Assembly (NCBI GenBank): GCA_050250875.1 | Contig: JBFWNV010000003.1 | Coordinates: 167,153-231,152, forward strand | Length of the DNA stretch: 64,000 nt | From: Vicinamibacterales bacterium | GTDB lineage: Bacteria; Acidobacteriota; Vicinamibacteria; Vicinamibacterales; UBA2999 | Direction of reading: 5' to 3' | Shown: positions 20,540 through 54,898 of the stretch, piece after piece | Numbering within the stretch: the stretch's first letter is position 1 | How the letters are laid out: each line of letters opens with the position of its first letter | The notes under the pieces: model-generated | Seen by the model: the letters and a program-made list of their open reading frames with translations, nothing else | Databases searched by the model: none | Told to the model about the DNA's origin: nothing | Translations under genes and position numbers: made by a program

Positions 20540-20618
20540 GCGATGGCTCCTGGCGGTCGGCGGCAAAGGGACGACACCGGAGAGACGTCCGGCCGCGCCG
20601 ATTGGTTCGTGATCCCGT

Positions 20619-21716: not shown

Positions 21717-21740
21717 CGGCTCGCTGCCCCGCCCGCGCGG

Positions 21741-22193: not shown

Positions 22194-22271
22194 TGGTCGG
22201 GATGCCGGGATTCGAACCCGGGACCTCCTGCACCCCAAGCAGGCGCGCTAGCCAGGCTGCGCTACATCCCG
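22194..22271 (-). tRNA. tRNA-Pro (anticodon GGG), CCA encoded
   Basis: Hand-folded cloverleaf: acceptor CGGGATG/CATCCCG, D arm GCGC/GCGC, anticodon stem CCTGC/GCAGG with loop TTGGGGT, T arm CCGGG-TTCGAAT-CCCGG, then ACCA. 78 nt. Confidence 0.9.
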
Positions 22272-24202: not shown

Positions 24203-24275
24203 GGGCCACAGTGTAATGCGCGGTTTGGCCTGCCCAGGCGCAGCGCCGCGCTCCAGGTCCGCGTCAGGCCCCGCG

Positions 24276-24304
24276 TTGACAGCGTAAGTCGTTCTATTTA
24301 TGCT
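24276..24304 (+). promoter_or_regulatory. Sigma70-type promoter TTGACA-17 nt-TATGCT
   Basis: Perfect -35, 17-nt spacer and a TATGCT -10, 37 nt upstream of the ATG at 24341. It sits in an AT-richer patch of an otherwise GC-rich window. Confidence 0.6.
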
Positions 24305-24340
24305 AGTTACCGTGCTCACTCGCGAGCGGGCGGCGGGCCG

Positions 24341-24610
24341 ATGATCAAGGTCGACATCGTCAACGAGGTGTCGCGCCTCGCCGAGATCACCAAAGTGAAG
24401 GCGGAACTGGCCGTCGATGCGGTGTTCGACGCCATGCGGGTGTCGATGCAGCGCGGCGAACGCATTGAGCTGCGAGGGTTTGGCGTCTTTCAGGTGAAGC
24501 CCCGAAAGCGCGGCATCGGCCGCAATCCCCGCACCGGCCGGGAGGTGCGCATCCCGCCCGGCCGCACCATCCGGTTCAAGCCCGGCAAGGACCTGCAGAA
24601 CATCGGCTGA
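24341..24610 (+). CDS. HU/IHF-family DNA-binding protein
   Basis: 89 aa. ELRGFGVFQVKPRKRGIGRNPRTGREVRIPPGRTIRFKPGKDL is the canonical beta-arm region. Confidence 0.85.
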   Translation: MIKVDIVNEVSRLAEITKVKAELAVDAVFDAMRVSMQRGERIELRGFGVFQVKPRKRGIGRNPRTGREVRIPPGRTIRFKPGKDLQNIG

Positions 24611-24627
24611 CGCGCCGCCCACGAGCC

Positions 24628-25593
24628 ATGGACAGCGGCGCGGCAATGGCCGCGGAGACCGTTTCCCCGCCGCCGCGGTGGCAGGACCCGCTGGGGTGGC
24701 ACGCCGTGGCCCTGTGCCTCACCATCGTCTCGACGACCTTCGTCGGCGGGATGCACTGGGCGGCGTTCACGGGCGGCGACGCGGCGGCGGCCGATCCGTC
24801 GAGCGCGGCGTTCTGGATCGGCGGTCTCGCCTTCAGCGCTCCGGTGCTCGCCATCCTCGGCTTTCACGAACTCGGGCACTACGCGGCCTGCCGCTACTAC
24901 GACGTCGACGCGTCGCTGCCGTGGTTCCTGCCGGCGCCGCTGCCGCTCACCGGCACGCTCGGCGCGTTCATCCGTCTGCGTGAGCCGATTCCCCACCCGC
25001 GCGCGCTCTTCGACATCGCCGTCGCCGGCCCGCTGGCCGGCTTCGTGGTGGCCGTCCCGCTGCTCGTCGCCGGGATCGCCTGGTCGCGCGTCGTCGCCCT
25101 GCCCGCCGACGGCGGCGGCCTGGTGCTCGGCGACCCGCTGCTGTTCCAGCTGATCGAGCGCGTCATCTGGGGGGCGATTCCCGACGAGCAGGCGCTCTAC
25201 GTGCACCCGATGGGCCTGGCGGCGTGGTTCGGGCTGCTGGCCACGGCCCTCAACCTGTTCCCCTTCGGCCAGCTCGACGGCGGACACATCTCCTACGCGG
25301 TGTTCGGACGGCGCGCCCGCTGGTTGTCGGCGGCGACCATCGTCGCCACCGTGGCGCTCGCCTACGGGTCGCTCAGCTGGGGCGCCTGGTCGGTGCTCCT
25401 CCTGCTGATGGCGGCCGTGCACGGCGTCGGCCATCCGCCGACGCTCGACGACGCCCAGCCGCTCGATCGCGGCCGCCTCGCGCTGGCCGTCGTCGCCGCG
25501 ATCGTGCTGATCCTCTGCTTCACCCCGCGCCCGATCGAGCCGATGGACATCGTCGACGACGATCCGCCGACCTCGGTCCGGGCGAGGCGGTAA
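24628..25593 (+). CDS. M50-family (site-2 protease-like) membrane metalloprotease
   Basis: HELGHYAACRYY (HExxH in a TM segment) and NLFPFGQLDGGH. Multiple TMs. Confidence 0.75.
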   Translation: MDSGAAMAAETVSPPPRWQDPLGWHAVALCLTIVSTTFVGGMHWAAFTGGDAAAADPSSAAFWIGGLAFSAPVLAILGFHELGHYAACRYYDVDASLPWFLPAPLPLTGTLGAFIRLREPIPHPRALFDIAVAGPLAGFVVAVPLLVAGIAWSRVVALPADGGGLVLGDPLLFQLIERVIWGAIPDEQALYVHPMGLAAWFGLLATALNLFPFGQLDGGHISYAVFGRRARWLSAATIVATVALAYGSLSWGAWSVLLLLMAAVHGVGHPPTLDDAQPLDRGRLALAVVAAIVLILCFTPRPIEPMDIVDDDPPTSVRARR

Positions 25594-25604
25594 CGGCGCG
25601 ACCG

Positions 25605-25610
25605 TATAAT
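25605..25610 (+). promoter_or_regulatory. Consensus -10 hexamer TATAAT, 10 nt upstream of the kinase ATG
   Basis: Read directly. No SD lies between it and the ATG at 25621. Confidence 0.35.
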
Positions 25611-25620
25611 CCGGCGACCG

Positions 25621-28600
25621 ATGTCATTGGCTCCCGGGACCGCACTCGGCGCGTATGAGATCGTCGCCCAGCTCGGCGCCGGCGGCATGGGCGAGGTCTA
25701 TCGCGCTCGCGACAGCCGGCTGGAACGGGACGTGGCCCTCAAGGTGCTGCGCGGCGACGTGGCCCGCGATCCCGCACGGCTCGAGCGGTTCGGCCGCGAG
25801 GCGCGGGCCATTGCCGCCCTGAACCACCCGCACATCGTCACCATTCATTCCACCGAGGAAGCCGACGGCCTCCGCTTTCTCACGATGGAGCTGATCGAGG
25901 GGCAGACGCTCGACGGCGTCCTCGTGCCCGGCGGACTTGCCGTCGCGCGCTTCCTCGAGCTGGCCCTTCCGCTCGCGGACGCGCTGGCGGCCGCCCACCA
26001 GAAGCACATCACCCACCGCGACCTCAAGCCGGGGAACGTGATGGTGTCGGCCGACGGCCGGGTGAAGGTACTGGACTTCGGACTGGCCCGCATGGGCGAG
26101 GCCGGTGGCGACCACGCCATCGACGCGACGCGCGCCGTGTTGACCGGCGAAGGCACCATCGTCGGGACGATGCCGTACATGTCGCCGGAGCAGGTCGAGG
26201 GGCGACCGCTCGATCCGCGCAGCGACCTGTTCTCGCTCGGCGTGATGTTCTACGAGATGCTGACCGGCGCGCGGCCGTTCCGGGCCGCGTCATCGCCAGC
26301 GCTGATGTCGGCCATCCTGCGCGACACACCGCCGCTCGTGACCAGCGAACGCGCCGACGTGCCCGAGGCCCTCGCGCGTCTGGTGGCACGGTGCCTCGAG
26401 AAGCGTCCCGACGACCGGGTGCAGACCGCGCGGGACGTCTACAACGAGCTGCGGCATCTTCAGAGGCAGCTCGAGGCGGGTGTCGCTCCTGCGCGGTCGT
26501 CATCCGGCTCCGGGCGGCACGCGTCAACCGAGCCGCGCATCGCGGTGCTGCCGTTCGGGCATCGAGGCGCAGATGCTGCCGCCGGCTTGGCCGACGGCCT
26601 CACGGAGGATGTCACCACCGGGCTCTCCCGGTTCGCGCACCTGCGCGTGGTGCCCGCCGCCACCGCGGCGACGCTCACGCCGGACGCCGCCCAGCGCGCC
26701 GGCGTGCGCTACCTGCTCGAGGGGCGGGTCCAGGGCGGTGGCGGTGGCGGCGCCGTTCGCGTCACGGTCCGCCTGATCGACGGCGCCACCGGCAGCAACC
26801 TCTGGGCCCAGACGTTCGATCGAACGCTCGGCACCGGCGCCTTCGACGTGCAGGACGACATCGCCAGCCACGTCGTGGCCACCGTCGGCGACACCAGCGG
26901 CGTGCTCGCACGATCGATCGCGGCGACGTTGCTGCGCCGTCCGGTCGAAGATCTGACCGTCCGCGAACTCGTGCTGCGATTCCATGCCTATGTCGAGCAT
27001 TTCCAGGCGGAGGAGCATGCCCGGCTGCGCGGCGGTCTGGAGCGTGCACTCGAGCAGGAGCCGCTCGTCGCCGAGGGCTGGGCGTGCCTGGCCGATCTCT
27101 ACGAGCACGAGCACTCGCAGCGGCTGAACCCCCTGCCCGACAGTCTGGGCCGCCAGCGCCGGGCCGCGCAGCGTGCCGTGGAGATCGATCCACATAATCA
27201 GCGCGGGTGGACCGCCATGGCCGCGGTGCACACCTTCGAGCGCGACCGCGCCGCCCTCCGAATCGCCGCGGAACGGGCCGTCGGCTTGAACCCGCTCGAT
27301 GCCGACACCGTCGGCTTGTGCGCACTCTTCCTGTCGTGCGCGGGCGACGACGATCGCGCCATGTCGCTGTTCGAGCGGGCGGTGCAGCTCAAGCCCCAGC
27401 ATCCAGGGTGGTATCACTTCACGCCGTTCACGACGCACTACAAGCGGCAGCAGTACGCGGAGGCGCTGGCGCAAGCGAAGCGCATCGCGCTTCACCAACT
27501 GCCGACCTCGCACATGGCGGCGGCGGCCGCCGCCGCACGGGTCGGATCGGTCGGCGAGGCACATACGGCCCTCGAAGGGCTGCGGCGCCTGGATGCGAGA
27601 CTGCTGGAGCGCGAGGCGGCGCGGCAGGCGTGGGCCCTGTGGCTGTGGGACGAGGCCGTCGTGGAGGATCTGGTCGACGGCCTGGCGCGCGCCCTCGACA
27701 TGCAACCCGTGCCGGCCCGAGCGCAGCACGCTCGGCCAGCGGAACCGCAGCGGTCCGGATCGACCGCCCCGCGGACGTCGCGTCCTGCCGTACACGAGAT
27801 GCGCGTCGCCGTGCTCCCCTTCACGGCCCGCGGAAACGCCGACGCCATAGCGCTGGCCGAAGGGCTGACCGACGAACTCACGACCGCGCTGGCCAGGTTC
27901 GCGTACCTGCAAGTCGTCACGCGGGCCGCGCCACCGGGGACGGCGGCGCAGTCGCCTCGCGCGTCAACCGCGGGCGCGGCTCCGGACGCCCGGTTTCTAC
28001 TCGAGGGCTCGCTCCACCAGATCGGGAGCTCGGTGCGGGTGAGCCTGCGGCTGTCCGACCGCGAGACGGGTGCCCACCTCTGGGCCGACACGCTCGATCG
28101 CGACCTCTCGGCCGGCCTGTTCGCGGTGCAGGACGACATCGTCAGCCGCCTGGCCGCGACCGTCGCCGACGCGGGCGGGGTGCTGGTGCGGTCGATGGGC
28201 GCGGCGGTTCGTGACCTGCCGCTCGAGGAGCTCGAGCTGGACGACCTGCTGCTGCGCTTTCAGCTCTACTCCGACCAGTTCACGGCGGCCGATCATGCCG
28301 GGCTCACGGCCGCCTTCGAAGCACTGGTGGTTCGCGAGCCCGGCGCCGCGAAGGCGTGGGCGTGCCTCGCGATACTGGTCGCGACGGAGATGTTCTTCGA
28401 TCTCAACCCCCGCCCGCAGCCCCTCGCACGTCTCCGTGAGTGCGCGGAGCGCGCCACCGTGCTCGATTCGTCGATCCAGCTCGGGTGGACCGCCATGGCG
28501 GTGCTGGCGATATTCGACCGCGACCGCAACGCCCTCGAAGCGGCCGCCGAGCGGGCGATCGCGCTCAACCCGCTGCACACCCGTACCCTGGCCGTCGTCG

Positions 28601-29055
28601 GCCTGCAGTTGGTGTTCTCGGGTGAGACCGACCGCGGCGTGGCGTTGCTGGAGCGCGCGATGGTGCTCAACCCGCGCCATCCGGGATGGTACTTGATCGG
28701 CCCGTTCCTGCAGGCCTACGAGCGCCGCGACTTCGACTTGGCGCTCCGCACTGCCCGGCGGATCGGCATGCCGCAATTCCTACCCGGTCTGCTCGCGGCG
28801 GCGTCGGCGGCCGGCAAGACCGGTGCCGCGGCGGAGGTGCGCTCGGCGATCGAGGCCATCGCCCGCGCCTGCCCGGGTCCGCTCGACCCCGCGCTGTCGC
28901 GCCGCCACTGGCAGGCCTGTCTCTGGGACACGGCGGCGATCGAACGGCTCGTCGACGGCTTTGCCAAGGCGCTGTTCATCGCGGCGGCGACGCCGCCTCC
29001 CGAGTCGAGCGCGGCGGAGCGGGCACAATCGCCGTGGGGCGAGACGCCGACATAG
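25621..29055 (+). CDS. Ser/Thr protein kinase with two tandem TolB-N-like + TPR-like modules
   Basis: Kinase motifs GAGGMGEVYRA, VALK, HRDLKPGNV, DFGLA, PYMSPEQ. Two homologous roughly 400-aa units then follow, starting RIAVLPF (26536) and MRVAVLPF (27799). Confidence 0.85.
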   Translation: MSLAPGTALGAYEIVAQLGAGGMGEVYRARDSRLERDVALKVLRGDVARDPARLERFGREARAIAALNHPHIVTIHSTEEADGLRFLTMELIEGQTLDGVLVPGGLAVARFLELALPLADALAAAHQKHITHRDLKPGNVMVSADGRVKVLDFGLARMGEAGGDHAIDATRAVLTGEGTIVGTMPYMSPEQVEGRPLDPRSDLFSLGVMFYEMLTGARPFRAASSPALMSAILRDTPPLVTSERADVPEALARLVARCLEKRPDDRVQTARDVYNELRHLQRQLEAGVAPARSSSGSGRHASTEPRIAVLPFGHRGADAAAGLADGLTEDVTTGLSRFAHLRVVPAATAATLTPDAAQRAGVRYLLEGRVQGGGGGGAVRVTVRLIDGATGSNLWAQTFDRTLGTGAFDVQDDIASHVVATVGDTSGVLARSIAATLLRRPVEDLTVRELVLRFHAYVEHFQAEEHARLRGGLERALEQEPLVAEGWACLADLYEHEHSQRLNPLPDSLGRQRRAAQRAVEIDPHNQRGWTAMAAVHTFERDRAALRIAAERAVGLNPLDADTVGLCALFLSCAGDDDRAMSLFERAVQLKPQHPGWYHFTPFTTHYKRQQYAEALAQAKRIALHQLPTSHMAAAAAAARVGSVGEAHTALEGLRRLDARLLEREAARQAWALWLWDEAVVEDLVDGLARALDMQPVPARAQHARPAEPQRSGSTAPRTSRPAVHEMRVAVLPFTARGNADAIALAEGLTDELTTALARFAYLQVVTRAAPPGTAAQSPRASTAGAAPDARFLLEGSLHQIGSSVRVSLRLSDRETGAHLWADTLDRDLSAGLFAVQDDIVSRLAATVADAGGVLVRSMGAAVRDLPLEELELDDLLLRFQLYSDQFTAADHAGLTAAFEALVVREPGAAKAWACLAILVATEMFFDLNPRPQPLARLRECAERATVLDSSIQLGWTAMAVLAIFDRDRNALEAAAERAIALNPLHTRTLAVVGLQLVFSGETDRGVALLERAMVLNPRHPGWYLIGPFLQAYERRDFDLALRTARRIGMPQFLPGLLAAASAAGKTGAAAEVRSAIEAIARACPGPLDPALSRRHWQACLWDTAAIERLVDGFAKALFIAAATPPPESSAAERAQSPWGETPT

Positions 29056-29174
29056 CGAGCCGGTGTTCCCGCTGATCGCGCCGCACGTGCCGGACGTCAA
29101 GAAATTGCAGACCGATCCGCGCATCGCCGCCAGCGTCGGCGAGCTCGACGAGCCGCTAGCCGCTGTTCGGGGAT

Positions 29175-31442
29175 CTAGAGCATGCTCACCGGATCGACGT
29201 CGATCGAGGTGCGGCGGGCCAGCGTCGGATGCGCCGCCAGCGCCGCCCGCATCGCCGCGCGCAGCCGTGCCCGCTGGCCGCCCTTGAGGAAGAACTGGGC
29301 GCGGTGCTCGCCGCGCAGCCGCGCCAGCGGCGCCGGCGCCGGGCCGAGCACCACCGTGCCGCCGCCCGTCGACTGCGCGGCGACGCGGGCGAGCTGGCCG
29401 GCGGCCCGCATGGCGTCTTCGGCGGTCGCGCCGCGCACCACCACGTTGACCATCGCGGTCACCGGCGGATAGCGCAGCGCCGTGCGATAGTCGAGCTCCT
29501 TGGCGACGAACGCCTCGTAGTCCTGCGCCGCGCCGCACCGCACGGCGTAGTGCTCGGGGAACAGCGTCTGGACGATCGCTTCGCCGGGCCGCTCGCCGCG
29601 GCCGGCGCGGCCGACCACCTGCGTGATCAGCTGGAAGGTGCGCTCCGCGGCGCGGAAGTCCGGCAGTCCCAGGCCGACATCGGCCGAGATCACGCCGACC
29701 AGCGTCACCGCCGGGAAGTCGTGGCCCTTGGCGATCATCTGCGTGCCCACCAGGATGTCGAGTTCGCGGCGGGCGAACCGCGCCAGCAACGCCGTCAGGC
29801 TGCCGCGCCGGCGCACGGTGTCGCGATCGACGCGTCCGACCCGCGCCGCCGGGAAGCGGGCCTGGAGGTCGGCTTCGACCCGCTCGGTGCCGAACCCGAC
29901 GTGCTCGAGGTACGGCGCCGCGCAGTTCGGGCAGGCCGCCGGCACGCGCTGCGCGAAGTCGCAGTAGTGGCAGCGCGCCATCGCGCGCGGGCCGTGGCCG
30001 TGCACGGTCATCGACACGCTGCAATGGGGGCACTCCACGGTCGAGCCGCACTGCCGGCACAGCACCGCCGCGGCGATCCCCCGCCGGTTGAGCAGCACGA
30101 GACTCTGCTCGCCGGCGGCCAGGCGCGCCGCCAGCGCCTCGTCGAGCGGGCGGCTGATCACGACCTCCTCGCCGGCGGCGGCCCATTCGTCGCGCATGTT
30201 GACGATCCGCACCGCGGCGAGCGGCCGGTCGGCGACGCGCCGCACCAGCGACACCGTGGTGTAGCGGCCGCGGCGGGCGTTGTGCACCGTCTCGAGCGAG
30301 GGCGTCGCCGATCCGAGCACGGCCAGCGCCCCGGCCTGGTGGGCGCGCATCACGGCGACGTCGCGGCCGTGATAGCGCGGCGTCTCGTCCTGCTTGTACG
30401 ACGTGTCGTGTTCCTCGTCGACCACCACCAGCCCCAGCCGGTCGAGCGGCGCGAACACCGCCGACCGCGTGCCGACGACGACGTCGACCTCGCCGCCGCG
30501 CACGCGGTGCCACTGGTCGTGCCGCTCGCCGTCGGACAGCCCGCTGTGCTGGATCGCCACGCGGTCGCCGAAGCGGGCGCGCACGCGGCCGGCGACCGCC
30601 GGCGTCAGTGCGATCTCGGGCACGAGCACCAGGGCCTGCCGGCCCTGGCGGCGCACGTGATCGGCCAGATGCAGGTAGACCTCGGTCTTGCCGCTGCCGG
30701 TCACGCCGCGGACCAGGGCGGCGTGGAAGCCGCCGGCCGCGGTGAGCGGCACGAGGACGTCGAGGGCGGCCTGCTGCTCGGCGGTCAGTGCGGTGACCGG
30801 CGCCGGCGGCGGCAGGCTGTGCGCCTCGAACGGGTCGCGGTCCACGGTCTCGTGGCGGATGACGACGAGGCCGGACTGCACCAGACGGGCGACGGTCGGC
30901 GCCGAGACGCCGCGATCGGCGAGCGTCGCCGTCGGCAGGCCGGCCGGCGCACCGGCGAGCAGCAGCAGTCCCTCGCGCTGCCGCCGGCCGAGCCGCAGCG
31001 CGTCGGCGCCGTCGTCGCCGGGCGGGGCGCAGCGCGGGCCGATGCGGGCGTGCTCGGCCGCGTGCACGCCGGCCGCGGTCAGCGCGGCGATGCGGCGGCG
31101 TCGGAACGTCCGCTCGTCGCCGGTCAGCACGCGCGGCGGCAGGGCCGTCGCCAGCACGTCGCCCGGACCCGCGAGGTAGTAGTCGGCGACCCACAGGGCC
31201 AGCGTCAGCAGGCTCGGCGGCACGAACGCCGTGGTGTCGCGCACGGCGGCCACCTCGCGCACCCGCACCGACGCCGGCGGCGCCGCGGCCGGCGCGGCGA
31301 CGACGATGCCGGTCACGCGGCGCGCTCCGAGCGGCACGTCCACTCGCGCTCCCGGCGCCGGCCACGGCCACGCCTCGGGCCAGCGATAGGTCAGCAGGTC
31401 GAGCGCGGGCACCGGCACCGCGACCGACACGAAGCGATCCAC
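29175..31442 (-). CDS. priA: Primosomal protein N' (PriA helicase)
   Basis: Walker A GVTGSGKTEVY, DEEHD box, Cys-rich Zn insert CRQCG..CPHC...CHYC...CPNC. Confidence 0.9.
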   Translation of the reverse strand: MDRFVSVAVPVPALDLLTYRWPEAWPWPAPGARVDVPLGARRVTGIVVAAPAAAPPASVRVREVAAVRDTTAFVPPSLLTLALWVADYYLAGPGDVLATALPPRVLTGDERTFRRRRIAALTAAGVHAAEHARIGPRCAPPGDDGADALRLGRRQREGLLLLAGAPAGLPTATLADRGVSAPTVARLVQSGLVVIRHETVDRDPFEAHSLPPPAPVTALTAEQQAALDVLVPLTAAGGFHAALVRGVTGSGKTEVYLHLADHVRRQGRQALVLVPEIALTPAVAGRVRARFGDRVAIQHSGLSDGERHDQWHRVRGGEVDVVVGTRSAVFAPLDRLGLVVVDEEHDTSYKQDETPRYHGRDVAVMRAHQAGALAVLGSATPSLETVHNARRGRYTTVSLVRRVADRPLAAVRIVNMRDEWAAAGEEVVISRPLDEALAARLAAGEQSLVLLNRRGIAAAVLCRQCGSTVECPHCSVSMTVHGHGPRAMARCHYCDFAQRVPAACPNCAAPYLEHVGFGTERVEADLQARFPAARVGRVDRDTVRRRGSLTALLARFARRELDILVGTQMIAKGHDFPAVTLVGVISADVGLGLPDFRAAERTFQLITQVVGRAGRGERPGEAIVQTLFPEHYAVRCGAAQDYEAFVAKELDYRTALRYPPVTAMVNVVVRGATAEDAMRAAGQLARVAAQSTGGGTVVLGPAPAPLARLRGEHRAQFFLKGGQRARLRAAMRAALAAHPTLARRTSIDVDPVSML

Positions 31443-31451
31443 GGGTGCCCG

Positions 31452-32189
31452 CTACCCTTCGGCGAGCATCTCGCGCACCTTCTTCATGTCCTCCCAGACC
31501 TCGCGCTTGGCGGGGGGATTCCTGAGCAGGTACGCCGGATGGAACGTCGGCACGAGCGACGCGCCGCGGAACTCGAACACGCGGCCGCGCAGCCGCGTGA
31601 TCGGCTCGGTCGATCGCAGCAGCGACTGGGCGGCGAACTTGCCGAGGGCGACGATCACCCGGGGCCGGATGGCGGCGATCTGCTGGAAGAGGAAGGGCTC
31701 GCAGGTGGCGACCTCGTCGGGTTCGGGATTGCGGTTGCCCGGCGGGCGGCACTTGATCACGTTGGCGATGTAGACCTGCTGACGGGTCAGGCCGATCGCC
31801 TCGATGATCTTGGTGAGCAGCTGCCCGGCACGGCCGACGAAGGGCTCACCCTGGCGGTCTTCGTCCTCGCCAGGGGCCTCGCCGACGAACATCAGCGACG
31901 CCGTCGGGCTGCCGACGCCGAACACCACCTGCCGGCGGCCGAGGGTGTGCAGTTTGCAGCGCGTGCAGTCGGGGCCGACCGCCGCCTGCAGCGTCGCCAG
32001 CGCCTCGGCCGGCGCCACGACGTCGAGCGCCGGCCCGGCGGCGGGTGCCGCCGCGGCGGGCGCTCCGCCGCCATCGGCCGGGTTCGTGGCGCCGTCGGCG
32101 CGCTGCCGCCAGGCCGCCTCGCGGCTGACGCCCTCGACGCCCAGCTCGCGGAAGTAGTCGAGATGGGCCTGCAGATCGTCGCGGGTCAT
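31452..32189 (-). CDS. Uracil-DNA glycosylase, family 4
   Basis: Start at MTRDDLQ (cat 32187-32189, ATGA overlap with coaBC). [26 protein letters not shown] and HPAYLLR motifs. Confidence 0.85.
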
Positions 32190-33406
32190 CGCCGCGCCGC
32201 CGGCGTGCCAGGGGCCACGCCCAGCAGCCGCTCGAGCCGATCGAGGATGCGGCCGGCGACCGCCGCCTTCGACATCAGCGGCAGCTCTTCGAGCCCGTCG
32301 TCGGCGACGAAGGTCACGGCGTTGGTGTCGACCTCGAAGCCGGCGTCGGTGCGGGCCACGTCGTTGGCGACGATGAGATCGACGCCCTTGCGGCGGCGCT
32401 TGGCGTCGGCGTGGGCGACGACGTCGTGGGTCTCGGCGGCGAATCCGACGAGCACCGGCCGGCCGCTGGCGCGTGACGGCAGCCGGCCGAGGTCGGCGAG
32501 GATGTCGGTCGTCCGCACCAGCGGCAGCGACCAGCCGCCGTCCGATTTCGCCACCTTCTGCCCGGCCACGGTTTCCGGGGTGTAGTCGGCCACCGCCGCT
32601 GCCATCACCACCGCGTCGGCGCCGGCGGCGCGGGCCATCACCGCGCGGTGCATGTCGGCGGCGCTGCGCACCCGCACGACGTCCACGCCGGCCGGCGGGT
32701 CGAGGTGCGTCGGCCCGGTCACGAGCACGACCGCGGCGCCACGGCGCGCCGCCTCGCGCGCCACGGCATAGCCCATGCGGCCGCTCGAGCGGTTGCCGAC
32801 GAAGCGCACCGGGTCGATGTCTTCGTAGGTCGGCCCGGCGGTGACGACCACCGCCCGGCCGGCCAGCGACGCGCCGCCGAGCAGCCGCCCGGCGGCCGCG
32901 ACGATCGCCTCGGGCTCGGCGAGCCGGCCCTTCCCCACCCAGCCGCAGGCGAGATAGCCCTCGCCCGGCTCGACGACGCGCACCCCGCGCGCCGCCAGCG
33001 TCTGCAGGTTGGCCTGCACCGCCGGATGCTCGAGCATGTGGGTGTTCATCGCCGGCGCCAGCAGCACCGGCGCGGTCGTCGCCAGGTACAGCGACGACAG
33101 GAAGTCGTCGGCCAGTCCGTGCGCGAACTTGCCGATGACGTTGGCGGTCGCCGGCACGACCAGCAGCAGATCGGACGACGTCGCCAGCGCGATGTGCTAG
33201 ATGTCGGCGTTCAGTCCGGGCGCCCACTGGCTGCCGATCACCCGCCGGCGGGTGATCGCTTCGAAGGTCAGCTCGCCGACGAACCGCCGGGCGCTGCGCG
33301 TCATCACCACCGTGACGTCGTGGCCGGCCTGCTGCAGGCCGCGCACGACCTCCACGGCCTTGTAGGCGCCGATGCCGCCGCTCACGCCGACTGTGATGCG
33401 TGCCAT
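32186..33406 (-). pseudogene. coaBC: coaBC (phosphopantothenoylcysteine decarboxylase/synthetase) interrupted by an in-frame TAG at 33197-33199
   Basis: The two track ORFs (33197-33406 and 32186-33157) are in the same frame. The read-through gives ...[31 protein letters not shown]. Motifs: [31 protein letters not shown]. Confidence 0.8.
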
Positions 33407-33415
33407 GCCTCGCTC

Positions 33416-34039
33416 CTACTCCGTGAAAAAGGTGCGGACGATGGCGTCGGCGATCCGCGCCATGCGGTGCGTCCGCGACCGCTCGGCGGCGATGATCTCC
33501 TGCAGGCGCACCACCGTCGACTCCAGATCGTCGTTGACCACGAGGTAATCGTACTCCCGGAAGCTCGACACCTCGGCGCGGGCCGTGGCCAGCCGCCGGC
33601 GCATCGCCGGCTCGGGATCGGCGCTGCGGCCGCGCAGCCGGCGCTCCAGCACCTGGTAGGAGGGCGGCATCACGAACACCGCGGTGTGATCGACGCCGCG
33701 CTGGCGCACCTGGCGGGCGCCCTGCACGTCGATCACCAGCACCACGTCCTGGCCGTCGTCGAGCATGTGGGCGACGTCGGCGGCGCCGGTGCCGTAGAGG
33801 TTGCCGAACACGTCGGCCCATTCGAGGAAGGCGTTGTCGGCGATCATCGCCTCGAACGCCGGCCGCGAGATGAAGTGGTAGTCGACGCCGTCGCGCTCGC
33901 CGACACGGGCCGGACGCGAGGTGTAGGACTTCGATTCCCGCAGGTTGGGAAGAATCTGCACGAGCCGCTCGACCAGCGTCGTCTTGCCGGTGCCCGACGG
34001 CGCCGAGATGACGAACAGCAGCCCGCGGCTACTCGACAT
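33416..34039 (-). CDS. gmk: Guanylate kinase
   Basis: P-loop [10 protein letters not shown]. Length 207 aa. Overlaps the yicC end by 11 nt. Confidence 0.9.
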
Positions 34040-34916
34040 TCTGGATCTGCTCCCGCATCCGCTCGAGTTCGGCCTTGGCCTGGATGATCAGCTCCGAGAC
34101 GGCGACTCCGTCGGCCTTGCTGCCGATGGTGTTGACCTCGCGGTTCATCTCCTGCAGCAGGAAGTCGAGCTTGCGGCCGCACGGCTCGGCGCCGTCGACC
34201 AGCGCGTCCCAGTGCTCGAGGTGGGCGCGGAACCGGGTGACCTCCTCGGCGATGTCGGATCGCTGCGCCGCCCGCACCACCTCCTGCGCCAGCGCCGCCT
34301 GATCGATCGGCAGCGACGCGCTCATCTCGCGGGCACGCTCCAGCAGCCGCTGCTCGACCTGGACGCGGCCCTGCTCGGCGGCACCGGCAATCGCAGTGAT
34401 GAGGCCGCCGAGCGCGGTCTTGCGGGCGGCCAGATCGGCGCGGAGCAGCCCGCCCTCGCGGGTGCGCATCTCGTCGAGCGCCTCGAGGGCGCGGACCAGT
34501 ACGGCCTCGGCGGCGGCGGCCCACACCACGCTGCCGTCCTCGCCGGCCGGCCGCTCGCGGATCGACAGCGCCTGCGGCAGCCGCAGGACGTCGCCGGGCG
34601 TCAGGGCCCCGACCACCAGCCCGGCGTCGCGGGCGGCGTCGACGGCGGCGGTGAGGGCGCGGACGAACCCGTCGTTCAGCTCGACCACCGGCGTCGGGCC
34701 GCCGCGCGTCTGCAGCGCGACCTGCACCTCGATTCGGCCGCGGGCGACGCGCTGCTGCACGGCCGCCCGCACCCGCGGCTCGGCGTCGCCGATGACCGGC
34801 GGCAGCCGAACCTGCAGGTCGAGGAAGCGATGGTTCACCGCCCGCAACGTCACGCTGATCGTCCCGGCGTCGTCGTCGTGCGACGCCGTGGCGAACCCGG
34901 TCATGCTCTTCATCAT
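34029..34916 (-). CDS. yicC: YicC-family protein
   Basis: MMKSMTGFA N-terminus, C-terminal EVNTIGSKA...[13 protein letters not shown], and the conserved yicC-gmk order. Confidence 0.8.
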   Translation of the reverse strand: MMKSMTGFATASHDDDAGTISVTLRAVNHRFLDLQVRLPPVIGDAEPRVRAAVQQRVARGRIEVQVALQTRGGPTPVVELNDGFVRALTAAVDAARDAGLVVGALTPGDVLRLPQALSIRERPAGEDGSVVWAAAAEAVLVRALEALDEMRTREGGLLRADLAARKTALGGLITAIAGAAEQGRVQVEQRLLERAREMSASLPIDQAALAQEVVRAAQRSDIAEEVTRFRAHLEHWDALVDGAEPCGRKLDFLLQEMNREVNTIGSKADGVAVSELIIQAKAELERMREQIQNVE

Positions 34917-34944
34917 GCGGCGGCCATCCCTCTCGACCGGCGGC

Positions 34945-36705
34945 TCATGACGGCGCGACGCCGGCGCGGTCCGGCCGGCGCGCCTCGGCGAACTGCGCCC
35001 GATGGAGGCGCGCGTAGTGGCCCTGGGGCCGCGCCAGCAGCTCCTCGTGGCGGCCGGCCTCGACCAGGCGGCCGCGCTCGAACACCAGGATGGCGTCGGC
35101 CCGCTGCACCGTCGACAGCCGGTGGGCGATGACGACGCAGGTGCGGTTGCGCATCAGGGTGGTGAGGGCCTCCTGCACCTGCCGCTCCGACTCGGAGTCG
35201 AGCGACGAGGTCGCCTCGTCGAGCACGAGGATCGGCGCGTCGCGCAGCAGCGCCCGGGCGATGGCCAGCCGCTGCCGCTGCCCGCCCGACAGGCGCTGCC
35301 CGCGTTCGCCGATCGTCGTCGCGTAGCCGGCGGGCTGGCTCTGGATGAACTCGTGGGCGTTGGCGGCGCGGGCGGCGGCCTCGATCTGCTCGCGGCTGGC
35401 GTCGGGCATCCCGTAGGCGATATTAGCCGCGATCGTGTCGTCGAACAGCACGGTCTCCTGCGTGACCACGCCGATCTGGCGGCGCAGCGACGCCAGCGTC
35501 ACGTCGCGGACGTCGTGGCCGTCGACGAGCAGCGCCCCCGCCGACACGTCGTAGAAGCGTGGCAGCAGGTTGGCCAGCGTGGTCTTGCCGGCGCCGCTCC
35601 GGCCGACGATGGCGACGACCTGCCCGGCCGGGACGGTGAACGACACCCCGTTCACCACCAGCTTGCCGTGGCCGTCTTCGTAGCCGAAGGAGACGTCGCG
35701 GTACTCGATGGCGTGCTGGAACGGCGGCAGCGTCACGGCGCCGGGCCGCTCCACCACTTCGGTGTGCGCGTCGAGCAGTTCGAACACGCGCTCGGCGGCG
35801 GCCGCCGCCTGCTGCAGGTTGGCGTTGACCCGCGTCAGCTTCTTGATCGGCCCGTACATGAGCAGCAGCGCGGCGACGAACGAGGTGAACTCGCCCGGCG
35901 TGAGCCGGCCGGCGGCGATCTCCTGGCTGCCGTACCACAGCGCGCCGACGATGGCCACGCCGCCCAGCGCCTCCATCAGCGGCGGCAGCAGCGACAGCAC
36001 GCCGGTGACGCTCATGTTGGTGCGGTAGAGCTGATCGGAGGCGGCGCGGAACTTGGCCGCTTCGCGGCCCTCGGCCAGGAACGCCTTGACGATGCGGTGC
36101 CCCGAGAACGCTTCGCCGGCGACGTGCGACAGCCGCTCGAGCGCCTCCTGGCTGCGCCGCGACACCGTGCGGAGCCGCCGGCCGAGCCGGGCGAGCGGGT
36201 AGACGACCAGCGGCGCCGCGGTGACGCAGACCAGCGCCAGGCCGGCGTCGATGTAGACCAGCAGCGCGGCGTAGCCGACCACCGTCAACGACTCGCGGGC
36301 GATGTCGCCGACGGTCTCGGACACCGCCCGCTGCACCAGGCCGACGTCGTTGTTCACCCGCGACAGCAACTGGCCGGTCGATCGGCGGGCGAAGAAGGCC
36401 GCCGACTGGCCGAGGACGTGCTCGAACAGGTCGGTGCGCAGGGCGCGGACGACGCGGTGGCCGAGGTCGTCCATCCAGTAGCTGGAGAAGAACGCGCCGA
36501 CGCCCTTGACGACGTAGACGACGACGATCGCGGTGCCGACGAAGGCCAGCGACTCGCGCGCCGGCAGCACCTGGTCGAGGATCGGCTTGACCAGCCAGGC
36601 CAGCGCCGCCGAGGCCGCGCCGTACAGCAGCATCGCCGCGAACGCCCCGGCGATCACCAGCCGGTGCGGTGCTGCGTAGCGGAGCAGGCGCAGCAGGGGA
36701 TCCAT
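34945..36705 (-). CDS. Fused TMD-NBD ABC exporter, MsbA/PglK-like
   Basis: Start at MDPLLRLLRY (cat 36703-36705), 1-nt overlap with the galE stop. Six-TM N-terminal half. GRSGAGKTT, LSGGQRQRLAIARAL, LVLDEATSSLD. Confidence 0.8.
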   Translation of the reverse strand: MDPLLRLLRYAAPHRLVIAGAFAAMLLYGAASAALAWLVKPILDQVLPARESLAFVGTAIVVVYVVKGVGAFFSSYWMDDLGHRVVRALRTDLFEHVLGQSAAFFARRSTGQLLSRVNNDVGLVQRAVSETVGDIARESLTVVGYAALLVYIDAGLALVCVTAAPLVVYPLARLGRRLRTVSRRSQEALERLSHVAGEAFSGHRIVKAFLAEGREAAKFRAASDQLYRTNMSVTGVLSLLPPLMEALGGVAIVGALWYGSQEIAAGRLTPGEFTSFVAALLLMYGPIKKLTRVNANLQQAAAAAERVFELLDAHTEVVERPGAVTLPPFQHAIEYRDVSFGYEDGHGKLVVNGVSFTVPAGQVVAIVGRSGAGKTTLANLLPRFYDVSAGALLVDGHDVRDVTLASLRRQIGVVTQETVLFDDTIAANIAYGMPDASREQIEAAARAANAHEFIQSQPAGYATTIGERGQRLSGGQRQRLAIARALLRDAPILVLDEATSSLDSESERQVQEALTTLMRNRTCVVIAHRLSTVQRADAILVFERGRLVEAGRHEELLARPQGHYARLHRAQFAEARRPDRAGVAPS

Positions 36706-37703
36706 CACCGGGACACGGTAGCCCGATAGCCTCCCGGGTGCGCCGCCCGCCACCGGGCGGCGTCGGCGACGATCGTCGCCAGGTCGCTGCGCCGCGGGCG
36801 CCAGCCCAGCTCGGCCTGGATGCGCGCGCTCGCGGCGTAGAGCGCCGACGGGTCGCCGTCGCGCCGCGGCGCCGGCGTCCACGGCACCGGACGGCCGACC
36901 ACGCGCGATACGGTGTCGATGACCTCGCGGACCGACCACGGCCGGCCGGTGCCGACGTTGTAGGCCCCGCCGCGGTGGCCGCCGGCGAGCGCGTCGAGGG
37001 CGTGGAGGTGGGCGGCGGCGAGATCGGCGACGTGGACGTAGTCGCGCAGGCACGTGCCGTCGGGGGTCGGGTAGTCGAGGCCGAACACCTGCAGCGGCTC
37101 GCCGCCGCGGGCGGCGTCGATGGCGCGCGGCACGAGATGGATCTCGGGATCGTGGTCCTCGCCGAGTTCGCCGTCGGGATCGGCGCCGGCGGCGTTGAAA
37201 TAGCGCAGCGCGATCGCCCGCAGGCCGTGCGCGACGCCGAAATGGCGCAGCGCCCGCTCGACGGCCAGTTTCGACTCGCCGTAGGCGTTCACCGGCACCT
37301 GCGGGTGATCCTCGGTGAGCGGCAGCGTCACCGGTTCGCCGTAGGTGGCGCAGGTGGACGAGAACACGAACCGCTCGACGCCCTCGGCGGCCATCGCCTC
37401 GAGCAGGCGCAGCGATCCGGTGACGTTGTTCTCGTAGTACTTGGCGGGCTGGCGCACCGACTCGCTGACCGTCAGCCAGGCGGCGAAGTGCATCACCGCG
37501 TCGATGCCGTGCTCGCGCAGTGTCGCCCGCACCGCGGCGCTGTCGTGGACCCGGGCCCGCACCAGCGGCACGCCGCGCACCGCCTCGGCATGGCCGGCCG
37601 AGAGGTCGTCGAGCACGACCACGGCGTGGCCGGCGGCGCGGAGCGCCTTCACGGCATGGCTGCCGATGTACCCGGCCCCGCCCGTGACCAGCACCCGGCC
37701 CAT
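36705..37703 (-). CDS. galE: UDP-glucose 4-epimerase
   Basis: VLVTGGAGYIGSH Rossmann motif and YGESK (YxxxK). Confidence 0.85.
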   Translation of the reverse strand: MGRVLVTGGAGYIGSHAVKALRAAGHAVVVLDDLSAGHAEAVRGVPLVRARVHDSAAVRATLREHGIDAVMHFAAWLTVSESVRQPAKYYENNVTGSLRLLEAMAAEGVERFVFSSTCATYGEPVTLPLTEDHPQVPVNAYGESKLAVERALRHFGVAHGLRAIALRYFNAAGADPDGELGEDHDPEIHLVPRAIDAARGGEPLQVFGLDYPTPDGTCLRDYVHVADLAAAHLHALDALAGGHRGGAYNVGTGRPWSVREVIDTVSRVVGRPVPWTPAPRRDGDPSALYAASARIQAELGWRPRRSDLATIVADAARWRAAHPGGYRATVSR

Positions 37704-37707
37704 CGCG

Positions 37708-39003
37708 CTACCGTCCGACCGACTTGTAGACGAAGCCCAGCTCCTTCATCTGCTCCGGCTGGTAGATGTTGCGGCCGTCGAAGATCACCGGCGCCTTGAG
37801 CAGCTTGCGCATGCGCTGGAAGTCGGGCTCGCGGAACTCCTGCCACTCGGTGATCACGGCCAGCGCGTCGGCACCCTTGAGGGCGTCGTAGTTCTTCTTC
37901 ACGAAGGCGACGCCTTTGGGGAAGAGGCTCTTGGCGACGGTCATCGCCTCCGGGTCGTAGGCCTGCACCCTGGCGCCCTTCTCGAGCAGGGTCCTGATGA
38001 TCGGCACCGCCGGCGCCTCGCGCATGTCGTCGGTCTTGGGCTTGAACGCCAGTCCCCAGATGGCGATGGTGCGGCCCTTGAGCGAGCCGAAGTGCGCCTC
38101 CATCTTGCGCAGCAGCAGCCGCTTCTGCGACTCGTTGACCTGTTCGACCGCCTTGAGAATCCTGAAGTCGTACTTCTTGTCGGCCGAGAACCTGACGATC
38201 GCCTTGACGTCCTTGGGGAAGCAGCTGCCACCGTAGCCGACGCCGGGGAACAGGAACGCCGGGCCGATGCGGCGATCGGAGCCCATCGCCTGGCGGACCC
38301 GATCGACGTCGGCGCCGTAGGCCTCGCAGACGTTGGCGATCTCGTTCATGAACGAGATCTTGGTCGCCAGCATGGCGTTGGCGGCGTACTTGGCCAGCTC
38401 GGCGCTGGCGCAGTCCATCACCATGATCGGCGCGCCGGTGCGCGTGAAGGGCTTGTGCAGCGCCACCATCAGCTCGGCGGCCTTCTCGTCCTCGGCGCCG
38501 ATGACGACGCGATCGGGCTTCATGAAGTCGTCGACGGCGGCGCCCTGCTTCAGGAACTCGGGGTTGCTGACAACGCTGAACGGGTGGGTGGTCTCGCGGC
38601 GGACCACCTCGCGCACCTTCGCCGCGGTGCCGACCGGCACCGTGCTCTTGTCGACGATCACCTTGTAGCCGTTCATCGCCCGGCCGATCTGCGCGGCGAC
38701 GCCCATCACGTGCTGGAGGTCGGCCGAGCCGTCCTCGCCCTGCGGGGTGCCGACGGCGATGAAGACGATCTGCGACGCGCGCACCGCCTTGGGCAGGTCG
38801 GTGGTGAAGGTCAGCCGGCCCTCGGCCTTGTTGCGGCGGAGGAGGTCTTCGATGCCCGGCTCGTAGATCGGGCTCTTGCCGCGGCGCAGCATCCGCACCT
38901 TGGCGTCGTCCTTGTCGACGCAGACCACGTCATTGCCGCTCTCCGCCAGACATGCGCCAACGACCAGCCCCACGTACCCGGTTCCGACCACCGCGACCTT
39001 CAT
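37708..39003 (-). CDS. ugd: UDP-glucose 6-dehydrogenase
   Basis: Start at MKVAVVGTGYVGLV (cat 39001-39003). Catalytic Cys block GYGGSCFPKD. Confidence 0.9.
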   Translation of the reverse strand: MKVAVVGTGYVGLVVGACLAESGNDVVCVDKDDAKVRMLRRGKSPIYEPGIEDLLRRNKAEGRLTFTTDLPKAVRASQIVFIAVGTPQGEDGSADLQHVMGVAAQIGRAMNGYKVIVDKSTVPVGTAAKVREVVRRETTHPFSVVSNPEFLKQGAAVDDFMKPDRVVIGAEDEKAAELMVALHKPFTRTGAPIMVMDCASAELAKYAANAMLATKISFMNEIANVCEAYGADVDRVRQAMGSDRRIGPAFLFPGVGYGGSCFPKDVKAIVRFSADKKYDFRILKAVEQVNESQKRLLLRKMEAHFGSLKGRTIAIWGLAFKPKTDDMREAPAVPIIRTLLEKGARVQAYDPEAMTVAKSLFPKGVAFVKKNYDALKGADALAVITEWQEFREPDFQRMRKLLKAPVIFDGRNIYQPEQMKELGFVYKSVGR

Positions 39004-39123
39004 GCGCCTCTTCGCTCCCTCTGGCGGGCCCCACCGCGGGCGCGCCGAACGTGTCACGGTACCATCCGCCCGCGACTGGTGTCAACATACTGACCCACAA
39101 GGACTTGTTGTCCCCCGCGGGTC

Positions 39124-40272
39124 GTGGTACCGTTGCCCGGCGTGCACGTGATCGTCGACTATCGCCCGGCGCTCAGGGCCCGCACCGGCATCGGCGAGTA
39201 CGTGCACGAGCTGGCTCGCGCGCTGGCCGCGACGGCCCCCGCCGGCGAACGGCTGACCCTGTTTTCGAGCTCGTGGGCCGACCGCATCATGCCCGACGCG
39301 GCGGCCGACATCCCCACCGCTGCGCGCGTCGACCGCCGGCTGCCCGTGCGCGCACTGACCTGGTCGTGGCATCGGCTGTCGTGGCCGCCCATCGAGCGGC
39401 TGGCCGGCGCCTGCGACGTGGTGCACTCGCCCACGCCCCTGCTGGTGCCGTCGCGACGGGCCGCCCAGGTCGTGACGGTGTTCGACCTGCACTTCCTGCA
39501 CGCCCGCCAGAACGTCAGTGGCCCGGCCCGGCGTGACTTCCCAGACCTGGTCCGCGACCACGTCCAGCGGGCCGACCACGTCATCGCGGGGTCGGCCTAC
39601 GCCGCCGGTCTGGTCGGACGCGAACTCGGGGTGCCGGCGGCGCGGATCACGACGACCCCGCTGGGCGCGCCGCGATGGGCGGAGGCGGTGCGGGCGCGCC
39701 GCGGCGGCGACCCGGGCTCCACGATTCTGTTCCTCGGCACGCTCGAACCGCGCAAGAACCTGGGCGTGCTCCTCGACGCCTACGCGCGGCTCGTCGAGAC
39801 GTCGCCGGGTGCGCCGCCGCTGGTCCTGGCCGGCCGGCCCACGCCGGCGGCGGCCGCCTGGCTGGCGCGGCTCGACACGCCGCCGCTGGCGGGTCGGGTC
39901 CGGACGCTTGGCTACGTCGACGATGCGACCCGCCAGCGCCTGTATGCCGAGGCGCGGATGCTGGTACTGCCGTCGGTGGACGAGGGGTTCGGCCTGACCG
40001 CGCTGGAGGCGCTGGCCTGCGGCGTGCCCGTGGTGGCGTCGGCGGCGGGCTCGCTTCCGGAGGTGGTCGGCCGGTCAGGTCTGCTGGTCGATCCCGGCCG
40101 TCCCGAGGCGTGGACCGCCGCGCTCGCCGCCCTGCTCGACGACGGCACGGCCCGGGCTCAGGGCCTGCTCGGCCCGGTCCACGCGGCGGCCTTCAGCTGG
40201 AGCGCCACGGCCGCCGCGACGCGGACCGCGTATGCCGCGGCCGTCGCGGCCCGGCGCGCGGGGAGCGTCTGA
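39124..40272 (+). CDS. Glycosyltransferase, GT4 family
   Basis: GT-B C-terminal EX7E block PSVDEGFGLTALEALACGVPVV. Confidence 0.8.
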   Translation: MVPLPGVHVIVDYRPALRARTGIGEYVHELARALAATAPAGERLTLFSSSWADRIMPDAAADIPTAARVDRRLPVRALTWSWHRLSWPPIERLAGACDVVHSPTPLLVPSRRAAQVVTVFDLHFLHARQNVSGPARRDFPDLVRDHVQRADHVIAGSAYAAGLVGRELGVPAARITTTPLGAPRWAEAVRARRGGDPGSTILFLGTLEPRKNLGVLLDAYARLVETSPGAPPLVLAGRPTPAAAAWLARLDTPPLAGRVRTLGYVDDATRQRLYAEARMLVLPSVDEGFGLTALEALACGVPVVASAAGSLPEVVGRSGLLVDPGRPEAWTAALAALLDDGTARAQGLLGPVHAAAFSWSATAAATRTAYAAAVAARRAGSV

Positions 40273-40274
40273 CG

Positions 40275-41351
40275 ATGCGCGTCGCCATCGACGCCCGCGA
40301 ACTGGCCGGCCACCCGACCGGCGTCGGCCGCTACCTCACCGAACTGCTGAAGGAGTGGCGTGACGGCGCCGGGGCCGGGCATGAACTGCTGCTGTACAGC
40401 CACCGACTGCCGCTCGAACCGCTCGACGACTGGCCGGTGCGGCTGGTGCCCGGATCGGGCGGCACGCGCTGGGAGCAGTGGGAGTTCGCGCGGGCGTTGG
40501 GGCGGGATCGGCCCGACGTGCTCTTCGCACCGGGGTATACGGCGCCCCTGGCGTGTCCGGCACCGGTCGCCCTCGCCGTCCATGACGTCTCCTACTTCGC
40601 GCACCCCGAGTGGTTCAGCGCCCGCGAGGGCCTGCGCCGCCGCCAGATCACCGCCTGGGCGGCGCGCCGGGCCCACGTCGTGCTGGCGCCATCGGCGTTC
40701 TCGGCCCGGGAGATCGTGCGCTTCACCGGCGTCCCCGAATCGCGTGTCCGCGTCGTCCACCTCGGCGTCCGCGCGGCCGCGACGCCGCCGTCGCGCGACC
40801 GCCGGCCGCTCGTGCTCTTCGTCGGCTCGCTCTTCCAACGCCGCCACATCGACGTCCTCATCGACGCGTTCGCGCGGGTCTCCGCCACCCACCCCGACGC
40901 CCATCTCGACATCGTCGGCGAGAACCGCACCGTGCCCCGCCTCGACTTCGCGACGCAGGTGGCCGCGCTGGGCCTGGCCGACCGGGTCGGCCTCCGTCAC
41001 TGGGTGGACGACGAGACGCTGGCGACGCTCTACGGCGAGGCGGCCGCCTTCCCCTTCCTGTCGGAATACGAAGGGTTCGGCTTCACGCCGCTCGAGGCGC
41101 TGGCCCACGGCGCCGTGCCGGTCGTGCTCGACACCCCGGTCGCCCGCGAGATCTACGGCGACGCGGCGGTGCGTCTCGACCCGGGACCGGACCTGGCGAA
41201 GACGCTCGCCGACACGCTGTCGCGGCTGCTCAGCGACCCCGCGGCACGGGCCGCACACCTGGCGGCCGCCGAACCCGTGCTGGCCGCTTACCAGTGGCGC
41301 GACACCGCGGCCCATACGTGGCGAGCCCTGGAGGAGGCGGCCGGTGCCTGA
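40275..41351 (+). CDS. Glycosyltransferase, GT4 family
   Basis: Start at MRVAIDARELAG (ATG 40275). LSEYEGFGFTPLEALAHGAVPVV. Confidence 0.8.
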   Translation: MRVAIDARELAGHPTGVGRYLTELLKEWRDGAGAGHELLLYSHRLPLEPLDDWPVRLVPGSGGTRWEQWEFARALGRDRPDVLFAPGYTAPLACPAPVALAVHDVSYFAHPEWFSAREGLRRRQITAWAARRAHVVLAPSAFSAREIVRFTGVPESRVRVVHLGVRAAATPPSRDRRPLVLFVGSLFQRRHIDVLIDAFARVSATHPDAHLDIVGENRTVPRLDFATQVAALGLADRVGLRHWVDDETLATLYGEAAAFPFLSEYEGFGFTPLEALAHGAVPVVLDTPVAREIYGDAAVRLDPGPDLAKTLADTLSRLLSDPAARAAHLAAAEPVLAAYQWRDTAAHTWRALEEAAGA

Positions 41352-42171
41352 GCCAGCCGGCCTCGACGTGGTCATCGTCAGCTACAACGTCCGCGCCGAT
41401 CTCGACCGCTGCCTGGGCTCGCTCGCCGCCCATCCGCCGGACCGCCCGCTGCACGTCACCGTGGTCGACAACGCGTCGAGCGACGGCACCGTGGCCCACC
41501 TGCGCCGGCACTGGCCGGCGGTGACGGCCATCGACGCCGGCGCCAACCTCGGGTTCGCCCGGGCCAACAACGTCGGCATCCGCGCCTCGACGCAGCCGCT
41601 GGTGCTGCTGCTCAACCCCGACACGATCGTCGGCGCCGGGCAGATCGACCGGCTGGTCGCGGCGCTCGAGGCCGATGCCGGCGCGGCAGCCGCCGGACCG
41701 CGCCTCGTCGACGGCGACGGCCGTCCCGAACTGTCCTTCGGCCCGGCGCTGTCGCCGTGGGGCGAGTTCCGCCAGCGGCGCCTGATGCGCGCCTACGAGC
41801 GCCGGGCCGCGTGGGCCGAGGCGCGGGTCGCGCGCGAGACCGCGGCAGCCGGGCCACGGCCCTGGCTGAGCGCCGCCTGCCTGCTGGTCCGCCGGGCCGA
41901 TCTCGAGGCGGTCGGCCTCTTCGACGAGCGCTTCTTCATGTACACCGAGGACGTCGACCTGTGCGCGTCGCTCGGCGCGCGCGGCCGGCGCGTGATCTTC
42001 GTGCCGGCGGCGACGGTCACGCACCTGCGCGGCCGCGCCGGCGCCGCCGCGCCCGCGGTGACGGCCCGCCGCCGCCGCGAGAGCCACGTCGCCTACTACC
42101 GCAAGCGCCATCCCGCGTGGGCGCCGCTGCTGGCCTGGTGGCTGCGCCGCCGCGGGTTCGATGTCCGATAA
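41344..42171 (+). CDS. Glycosyltransferase, GT2 family
   Basis: GTG at 41344, overlapping the upstream gene by 8 nt. VVIVSYN...VVDNASSDGT and YTEDVDL. Confidence 0.8.
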   Translation: MPEPAGLDVVIVSYNVRADLDRCLGSLAAHPPDRPLHVTVVDNASSDGTVAHLRRHWPAVTAIDAGANLGFARANNVGIRASTQPLVLLLNPDTIVGAGQIDRLVAALEADAGAAAAGPRLVDGDGRPELSFGPALSPWGEFRQRRLMRAYERRAAWAEARVARETAAAGPRPWLSAACLLVRRADLEAVGLFDERFFMYTEDVDLCASLGARGRRVIFVPAATVTHLRGRAGAAAPAVTARRRRESHVAYYRKRHPAWAPLLAWWLRRRGFDVR

Positions 42172-53522: not shown

Positions 53523-53630
53523 TGGCGCGGCCGCGTCCCGCCGCGTCCGGACGACGCCGGCCGCCCCTGCCGCGGGCGCCCCTGCCCCGCCAGACCGGCG
53601 GCCGTCACGAAGACAAGACCCGGCGGCCGA

Positions 53631-54881: not shown

Positions 54882-54898
54882 GCCGGCCCGCGCCCTCC

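Follow-up and report, generated by a model that had tools for sequence, protein, structure and literature searches.

The coaBC locus and its interrupted reading frame

The window that we analyzed, a stretch of 64,000 nt with a G+C content of 73%, lies within a 428,515-nt contig of the Vicinamibacterales (Acidobacteriota) MAG GCA_050250875.1 and carries coaBC within the gene order gmk-coaBC-udg-priA that is common to the window and its relatives (Table 1). The coaBC frame is 99.75% identical (405/406; tblastn) to an intact protein, P0001, which is the translation of the window's coaBC with Glu at codon 70. This protein matches the NCBIfam model TIGR00521 (coaBC_dfp) with 427.7 bits at a cut-off of 219.7 and over profile positions 5-391 of 392, the Pfam domains PF02441 and PF04127 are recorded on it, and CoaBC residues 3-395 match the solved CoaBC of M. 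smegmatis (PDB 6tgv; E = 9e-80). The locus therefore shares with bifunctional CoaBC (Dfp; TIGR00521, 6tgv) the same two domains, an N-terminal flavoprotein decarboxylase (PF02441) and a C-terminal CTP-dependent ligase (PF04127), but differs from it in codon 70, which reads TAG for GAG in this assembly only.

Table 1. Coordinates of the features of the coaBC locus and of the stretches aligned with the sister assembly GCA_050182705.1 (positions are those of the window)
Feature	Position	Strand	Remarks
coaBC frame	32186..33406	-	406 codons including the internal TAG; TGA stop at 32186-32188 (translation)
Premature in-frame TAG, codon 70	33197..33199	-	plus strand reads CTA; ancestral codon GAG (Glu)
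Substituted base	33199..33199		window A on the plus strand (T in the codon); GCA_050182705.1 C (G in the codon)
CAC codon, His71	33194..33196	-	catalytic His of the decarboxylase (CoaC) domain; directly downstream of the TAG
N-terminal fragment ORF, 69 aa + TAG	33197..33406	-	first third of the flavoprotein domain only
Longest ORF downstream of the stop, 323 aa	32186..33157	-	GTG start at 33157; lacks residues 1-83 including the catalytic His
AGGAG Shine-Dalgarno of coaBC	33413..33417	-	read off the sequence; overlaps the gmk TAG stop (33416-33418)
tRNA-Pro (anticodon GGG)	22194..22271	-	between a MerR-family gene and der; only RNA gene of the window (ARAGORN, Rfam)
Alignment with L002, 20,039 nt	23368..43406		1 mismatch, no gaps; at 33199
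Alignment with L029	1..17008		1 mismatch; at 2178
Alignment with L030	10619..23570		5 mismatches; clustered at 23494-23544
Alignment with L032	47142..58103		5 mismatches; clustered at 47171-47216

An earlier note on this DNA had described an in-frame TAG one codon before the catalytic His of coaBC, and the sequence bears this out: the complement of a plus-strand CTA interrupts what is otherwise a single frame of 406 codons. The change from GAG to TAG is one G-to-T substitution (C to A on the plus strand). The stop is thus a real and specific event in the sequence, yet it is one substitution. Changes that create a stop make up 64 of the 3,654 possible single-base changes in coaBC (1.75%), and premature stops account for 2.1% of all possible single-base changes in a 20-kb stretch.

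The same note had placed the His that follows the stop in the CoaC active site, which agrees with our alignments: the counterpart of H71 is His90 in Arabidopsis AtHAL3a (1e20/1mvl), M. smegmatis CoaBC (6tgv) likewise has a His at this column, and the catalytic site of PPCDC contains an essential His (PMC6168597). The substrate-flap Cys in the motif YLACGW is aligned with Cys175 of AtHAL3a, which is a Ser in the C175S mutant structure 1mvl, and CoaBC has its N-terminal HFCD flavoprotein domain with both the catalytic His and this flap Cys present.

The stop leaves two fragments. The 69-residue N-terminal one reaches only 64 bits against TIGR00521 and covers profile positions 5-65 of 392. Downstream, the internal GTG that had been pointed out at 33157 is indeed the first start codon after the TAG and opens the 323-residue ORF; the 20 nt upstream of it (CGTCCGATCTGCTGCTGGTC) hold no Shine-Dalgarno motif. 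The AGGAG ahead of coaBC itself is intact, so the gene retains its normal translation signal, and the stop codon of gmk that overlaps it is a TAG, meaning that this triplet acts as a terminator in the gene directly upstream of coaBC.

Separate coaB and coaC genes occur naturally in Streptococcus and Enterococcus (TIGR02113 / TIGR02114), and the coaBC region of the window is likewise spanned by two consecutive ORFs. Split genes of this kind, however, break between the two domains, whereas in the window it is the CoaC domain that is interrupted, one codon ahead of the catalytic His. Both fragments in the window moreover share one frame, and we rejected a natural coaB/coaC split because neither of them reaches the cut-offs of the split-gene models (TIGR02113 / TIGR02114).

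In the deposited record of the source MAG, the genes around coaBC carry protein accessions of the MGE40836xx series (kinase ..687, PriA ..688, UDG MGE4083689, Gmk MGE4083690, and YicC ..691), with no accession between UDG and Gmk, where coaBC sits. The series from 666 to 703 is consistent with one accession per gene between positions 1577 and 48103 of the window, and among the approximately 39 genes of this interval coaBC alone is without one, while the approximately 38 others have theirs. This fits a coaBC that was deposited as a pseudogene or received no gene call, with no protein product, and the gap in the series indicates that the TAG belongs to the record as deposited and did not originate with the window.

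Comparison with a nearly identical sister assembly

A second NCBI MAG of the Vicinamibacterales, GCA_050182705.1 (below, the sister assembly), consists of shorter contigs, three of which cover 54,368 nt of the window. Away from the ends of these contigs, the two assemblies differ at 2 bases, 33199 and 2178, over the 54,368 nt compared, and there is no synonymous or intergenic difference among them. On this sequence identity, the source of the window and the sister assembly represent one clone. At 33199 the sister assembly reads GAG and encodes an intact CoaBC of 406 residues (P0001 / MGE0363466), the accession of which lies between those of Gmk and UDG; the uninterrupted frame that the window lacks because of the TAG at codon 70 is therefore present in the clonally identical assembly. 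The remaining 1,217 nt of coaBC, the AGGAG site, and the neighboring genes are identical to the intact allele.

The second difference, at 2178, lies in an amidohydrolase gene (1577..2866, plus strand) and changes GAG to GTG (E201V). All 6 other members of the protein cluster, the sister's included, have Glu at residue 201 where the window has Val, and the V201 variant finds an exact match only in MGE4083666 of the source MAG. At both 33199 and 2178 the derived state is thus that of the window. Each of these two changes is radical and strikes a conserved Glu codon, although n=2 gives a test for selection little power.

Ten further mismatches fall into two clusters, at 23494-23544 (sister contig JBFXCB010000033.1) and 47171-47216 (JBFXCB010000025.1), each no more than approximately 100 nt from a contig end. 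At the first cluster, the overlapping 24-kb sister contig JBFXCB010000075.1 agrees with the window. We therefore rejected these ten mismatches as true differences and attribute them to contig-end noise in the sister assembly, not in the window.

Both private substitutions lie inside the hexamer GCTCGA (core TCGA), at window positions 2173-2178 and 33196-33201. Since TCGA covers 4.4% of the compared bases, both differences would fall into it by chance with p ~0.002, a value calculated post hoc. The coincidence may reflect a motif-linked, perhaps methylation-related, base-calling error, with which it fits, and we treat it as a lead only; being post hoc, it is no proof of error. Site 2178 also sits in a 10-nt palindrome (CGCTCGAGCG). 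Separately, a Logan contig of 1,802 nt (L031) from SRA run SRR27751816 is 100% identical to window positions 20333..22134, which indicates that the same clone is present in this public run.

Conservation of codon 70 and search for the TAG allele

Codon 70 is GAG in all of 26 related loci, in the context GACATC-GAG-CACATC; these loci take in 14 species representatives from a genome collection and ten contigs from other metagenomes. When the genome collection was scanned with the first base of the codon left as N, all 14 related species had G. At the protein level, the alignment of orthologues that had been proposed as a check returned Glu at this column in 119 of 120 close homologues and Asp in the remaining one, with neither gap nor stop. 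The earlier description of the stop as lying in a conserved block thus holds within the order (Glu in 119/120), but it does not extend to the wider family, in which the column varies (Q in M. smegmatis, ...HEVQHVRIG..., and L in AtHAL3a).

Among all data searched, the TAG allele is private to one assembly. The 30-mer that bears the TAG had no match in JGI metagenome contigs, the strain-specific 5' region had none in the metagenome scan, and the exact fragments of 69 and 323 residues were absent from a collection of 15 billion proteins. Likewise, a similarity search with the 69-residue fragment returned no identical truncated product. One sequence that it brought up, P0252, is a 68-residue CoaC fragment of another organism (ENA, 986-nt contig; 73% identical) that ends ...GANADI at the same column as the TAG. 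This end is probably the end of the contig, and as 1-2 such coincidences are expected among approximately 120 fragments, we did not count it as evidence.

The search with the 69-residue fragment also recovered, from long contigs of other MAGs, many pieces of coaBC that end in frameshift tails. In a group of related ENA contigs (L005, L007, L008, L010, L011, and L012; ERZ250394xx-ERZ250395xx), nearly every gene is broken up into short pieces, coaBC among them, in a manner typical of uncorrected indel errors. Given frameshifted coaBC genes next to broken neighbors in many assemblies, a broken coaBC is a common assembly artefact in the MAGs of this clade.

Interpretation of the premature stop codon

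The earlier note had left three options for the TAG, namely an error such as GAG to TAG, a nonsense allele with internal re-initiation of CoaB, and programmed read-through. The last of these can be widened to any purposeful decoding of the codon, be it by programmed read-through, a suppressor tRNA, or pyrrolysine, that would yield full-length CoaBC. Such recoding would agree with a frame that runs on for 336 more codons identical to the functional allele and with the C that follows the TAG, since termination in bacteria is not strong where a C follows the stop codon. It is nevertheless contradicted by the relatives, none of which has a stop at codon 70 (GAG in 26/26 loci including the 99.99% identical clone), and by the use of TAG as a frequent terminator: TAG ends 18 of the 45 confident (high-GC3) ORFs of the window, among them gmk, yicC, and priA, as well as the three genes ending at 2866, 7008, and 60493 that had already been listed. 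On these 18 ORFs we rejected a global reassignment of TAG, in keeping with the earlier judgment that it was unlikely. The window has a single tRNA gene, for tRNA-Pro(GGG), so that neither a suppressor nor a pyrrolysine tRNA is found there, and pyrrolysine was rejected on the latter count. No stimulatory structure stands out either, because folding of the 120 nt that begin with the TAG is no more favorable than that of shuffled controls (z = -0.66), and the identity of this stretch, the TAG codon aside, to the GAG allele shows that it holds no dedicated recoding signal. We therefore regard deliberate decoding of the TAG as extremely improbable. A further reading, that this copy of coaBC is a decaying pseudogene of the ordinary kind, dispensable because an intact paralogue exists at another locus of the genome, would account for the absent protein accession, as expected of a gene annotated as a pseudogene or not called at all. 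Yet there is one change in 1,221 nt relative to the intact allele, the ribosome-binding site is intact, the order gmk-coaBC-udg-priA is conserved, the copy occupies the single, syntenic coaBC position, and there is no second copy within the window. An old pseudogene was rejected on the single lesion with no other change, and we regard this reading as very improbable.

More weight is due to the possibility that the TAG is a genuine and very recent nonsense allele that has reached fixation or an appreciable frequency in the population sampled. Translation would then end after 69 residues, and the most that the cell could still make is a protein initiated anew at GTG 33157 or beyond, without CoaC activity but possibly with CoaB activity. 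Survival would have to depend on pantetheine or 4'-phosphopantetheine from neighbors, on a second coaC, or on low-level near-cognate read-through of UAG. In favor of such an allele, the deposited record contains the TAG, and the source contig, a long one, is clean apart from coaBC: each of the approximately 38 other genes from 1577 to 48103 has an accession. Expressed by itself, the CoaB domain of E. coli is active (PMC7794376), and a bypass is conceivable by analogy with E. coli and Salmonella, in which pantethine overcomes the loss of coaBC via type I pantothenate kinase (PMC12570885). Against it, CoaBC is essential, its silencing being uniquely bactericidal in M. tuberculosis, and CoaB of M. 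smegmatis is inactive alone (PMC7794376), while pantethine provides no bypass where the pantothenate kinase is of type III (PMC12570885). Re-initiation of CoaB, as the earlier note had envisaged it, finds its start codon in place but is otherwise weak, as the GTG has no Shine-Dalgarno motif and its product would lack 83 residues including the catalytic His. The sister clone has GAG and zero neutral differences over the 54 kb; had the lineage been separate for any appreciable time, synonymous changes would be expected to have arisen first, and their absence speaks against a genuine allele, as does its not being seen in the other assemblies or metagenome contigs searched. Taken together, we consider a genuine nonsense allele unlikely.

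A real allele would leave the cell without CoaC, and possibly without CoaB, and dependent on a bypass like that of the coaBC-deficient enterobacteria rescued by pantethine, as the work of Balibar et al. 2011 and Ernst and Downs 2015 is summarized in a review (PMC12570885). Those, however, are laboratory mutants with a type I pantothenate kinase, whereas the allele of the window is itself doubtful. Going one step further, a soil Vicinamibacterales lineage might just have lost the CoaC step (possibly also CoaB) and persist as an auxotroph fed with pantetheine or 4'-phosphopantetheine by its community, or by leaky UAG read-through. Were this true, it would offer a natural snapshot of the first step in a "Black Queen" style loss of an essential cofactor pathway, and the discovery that an uncultivated soil acidobacterium is naturally auxotrophic for a precursor of coenzyme A would be relevant to cross-feeding and to the difficulty of growing such bacteria in culture. 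Present evidence does not favor this scenario, which we hold to be decidedly unlikely.

A technical error in the consensus as the probable cause

The TAG is probably a private consensus, base-call, or assembly error, the option of the earlier note that our comparisons support best; GAG, the original codon that it had guessed, proves correct, being present in both the identical MAG and 26/26 loci. An error of one of these kinds, or a rare read variant taken into the consensus, would have turned GAG into TAG at 33199; the real coaBC of the organism would then be an intact gene for 406 residues with Glu70, as in the sister assembly, and no functional event would have taken place at codon 70. That the cause is technical and not mutational is something that we infer from several observations. 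The same clone in GCA_050182705.1 has GAG and an intact CoaBC, and the two internal differences between the assemblies are both radical, at conserved sites, and derived in the window, with none neutral. The codon is conserved as GAG in 26/26 loci and as Glu or Asp in 120/120 homologues, coaBC is free of further decay, and the TAG allele was not sighted elsewhere in JGI contigs or 15 billion proteins. The lack of a coaBC protein in the deposited record and the frequency of broken coaBC genes in the MAGs of this clade favor the same explanation. Finally, errors are blind to selection, while strong selection acts against a real nonsense mutation in a single-copy gene that is essential, which again favors error.

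The pattern resembles that of consensus errors in metagenomes, with a single G-to-T transversion that one assembly alone carries and a second transversion, likewise private, within the 54 kb compared. Oxidative damage is known to produce G to T (C to A) artefacts of library preparation (Costello et al. 2013, PMC3616734), with which the change in coaBC is compatible, though compatibility is all that we claim. Unlike the errors of this oxidative G>T / C>A class (PMC3616734), the second difference in the window is A to T, which is not an oxidative signature.

Other considerations count against an error. The length of the source contig (428 kb) hints at good coverage, at which a short-read consensus error would be unusual, or at long reads. 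Two differences are also too few for a firm argument from synonymous and non-synonymous changes, as about half of random pairs would both be non-synonymous, and a fresh mutation that selection had yet to purge would look exactly alike.

With a technical error as the preferred reading, the finding is an ordinary one, and its value lies in quality control, as a flag on the assembly. When an essential gene of a MAG shows an in-frame stop, near-identical assemblies should be compared before the stop is given a biological meaning.

Other features of the window

Outside coaBC, a segment of approximately 3.6 kb (25547..29174) between the gene of an M50 peptidase and priA contains the gene of a Ser/Thr protein kinase of 1,144 residues with TPR-like repeats (25621..29055, plus strand). 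In the relatives L003, L004, and L006, the M50 gene is directly followed by priA, which makes the kinase segment a lineage-specific insertion.

Two stretches of the window, 53434..54899 and 55972..56851, contain no ORF with the high third-position G+C that is typical here. At the sister locus (L032), they correspond to genes for an MFS transporter (~53631-54881) and a SAM hydroxide adenosyltransferase-like protein (~56015-56812), so both stretches are probably genes of slightly different composition.
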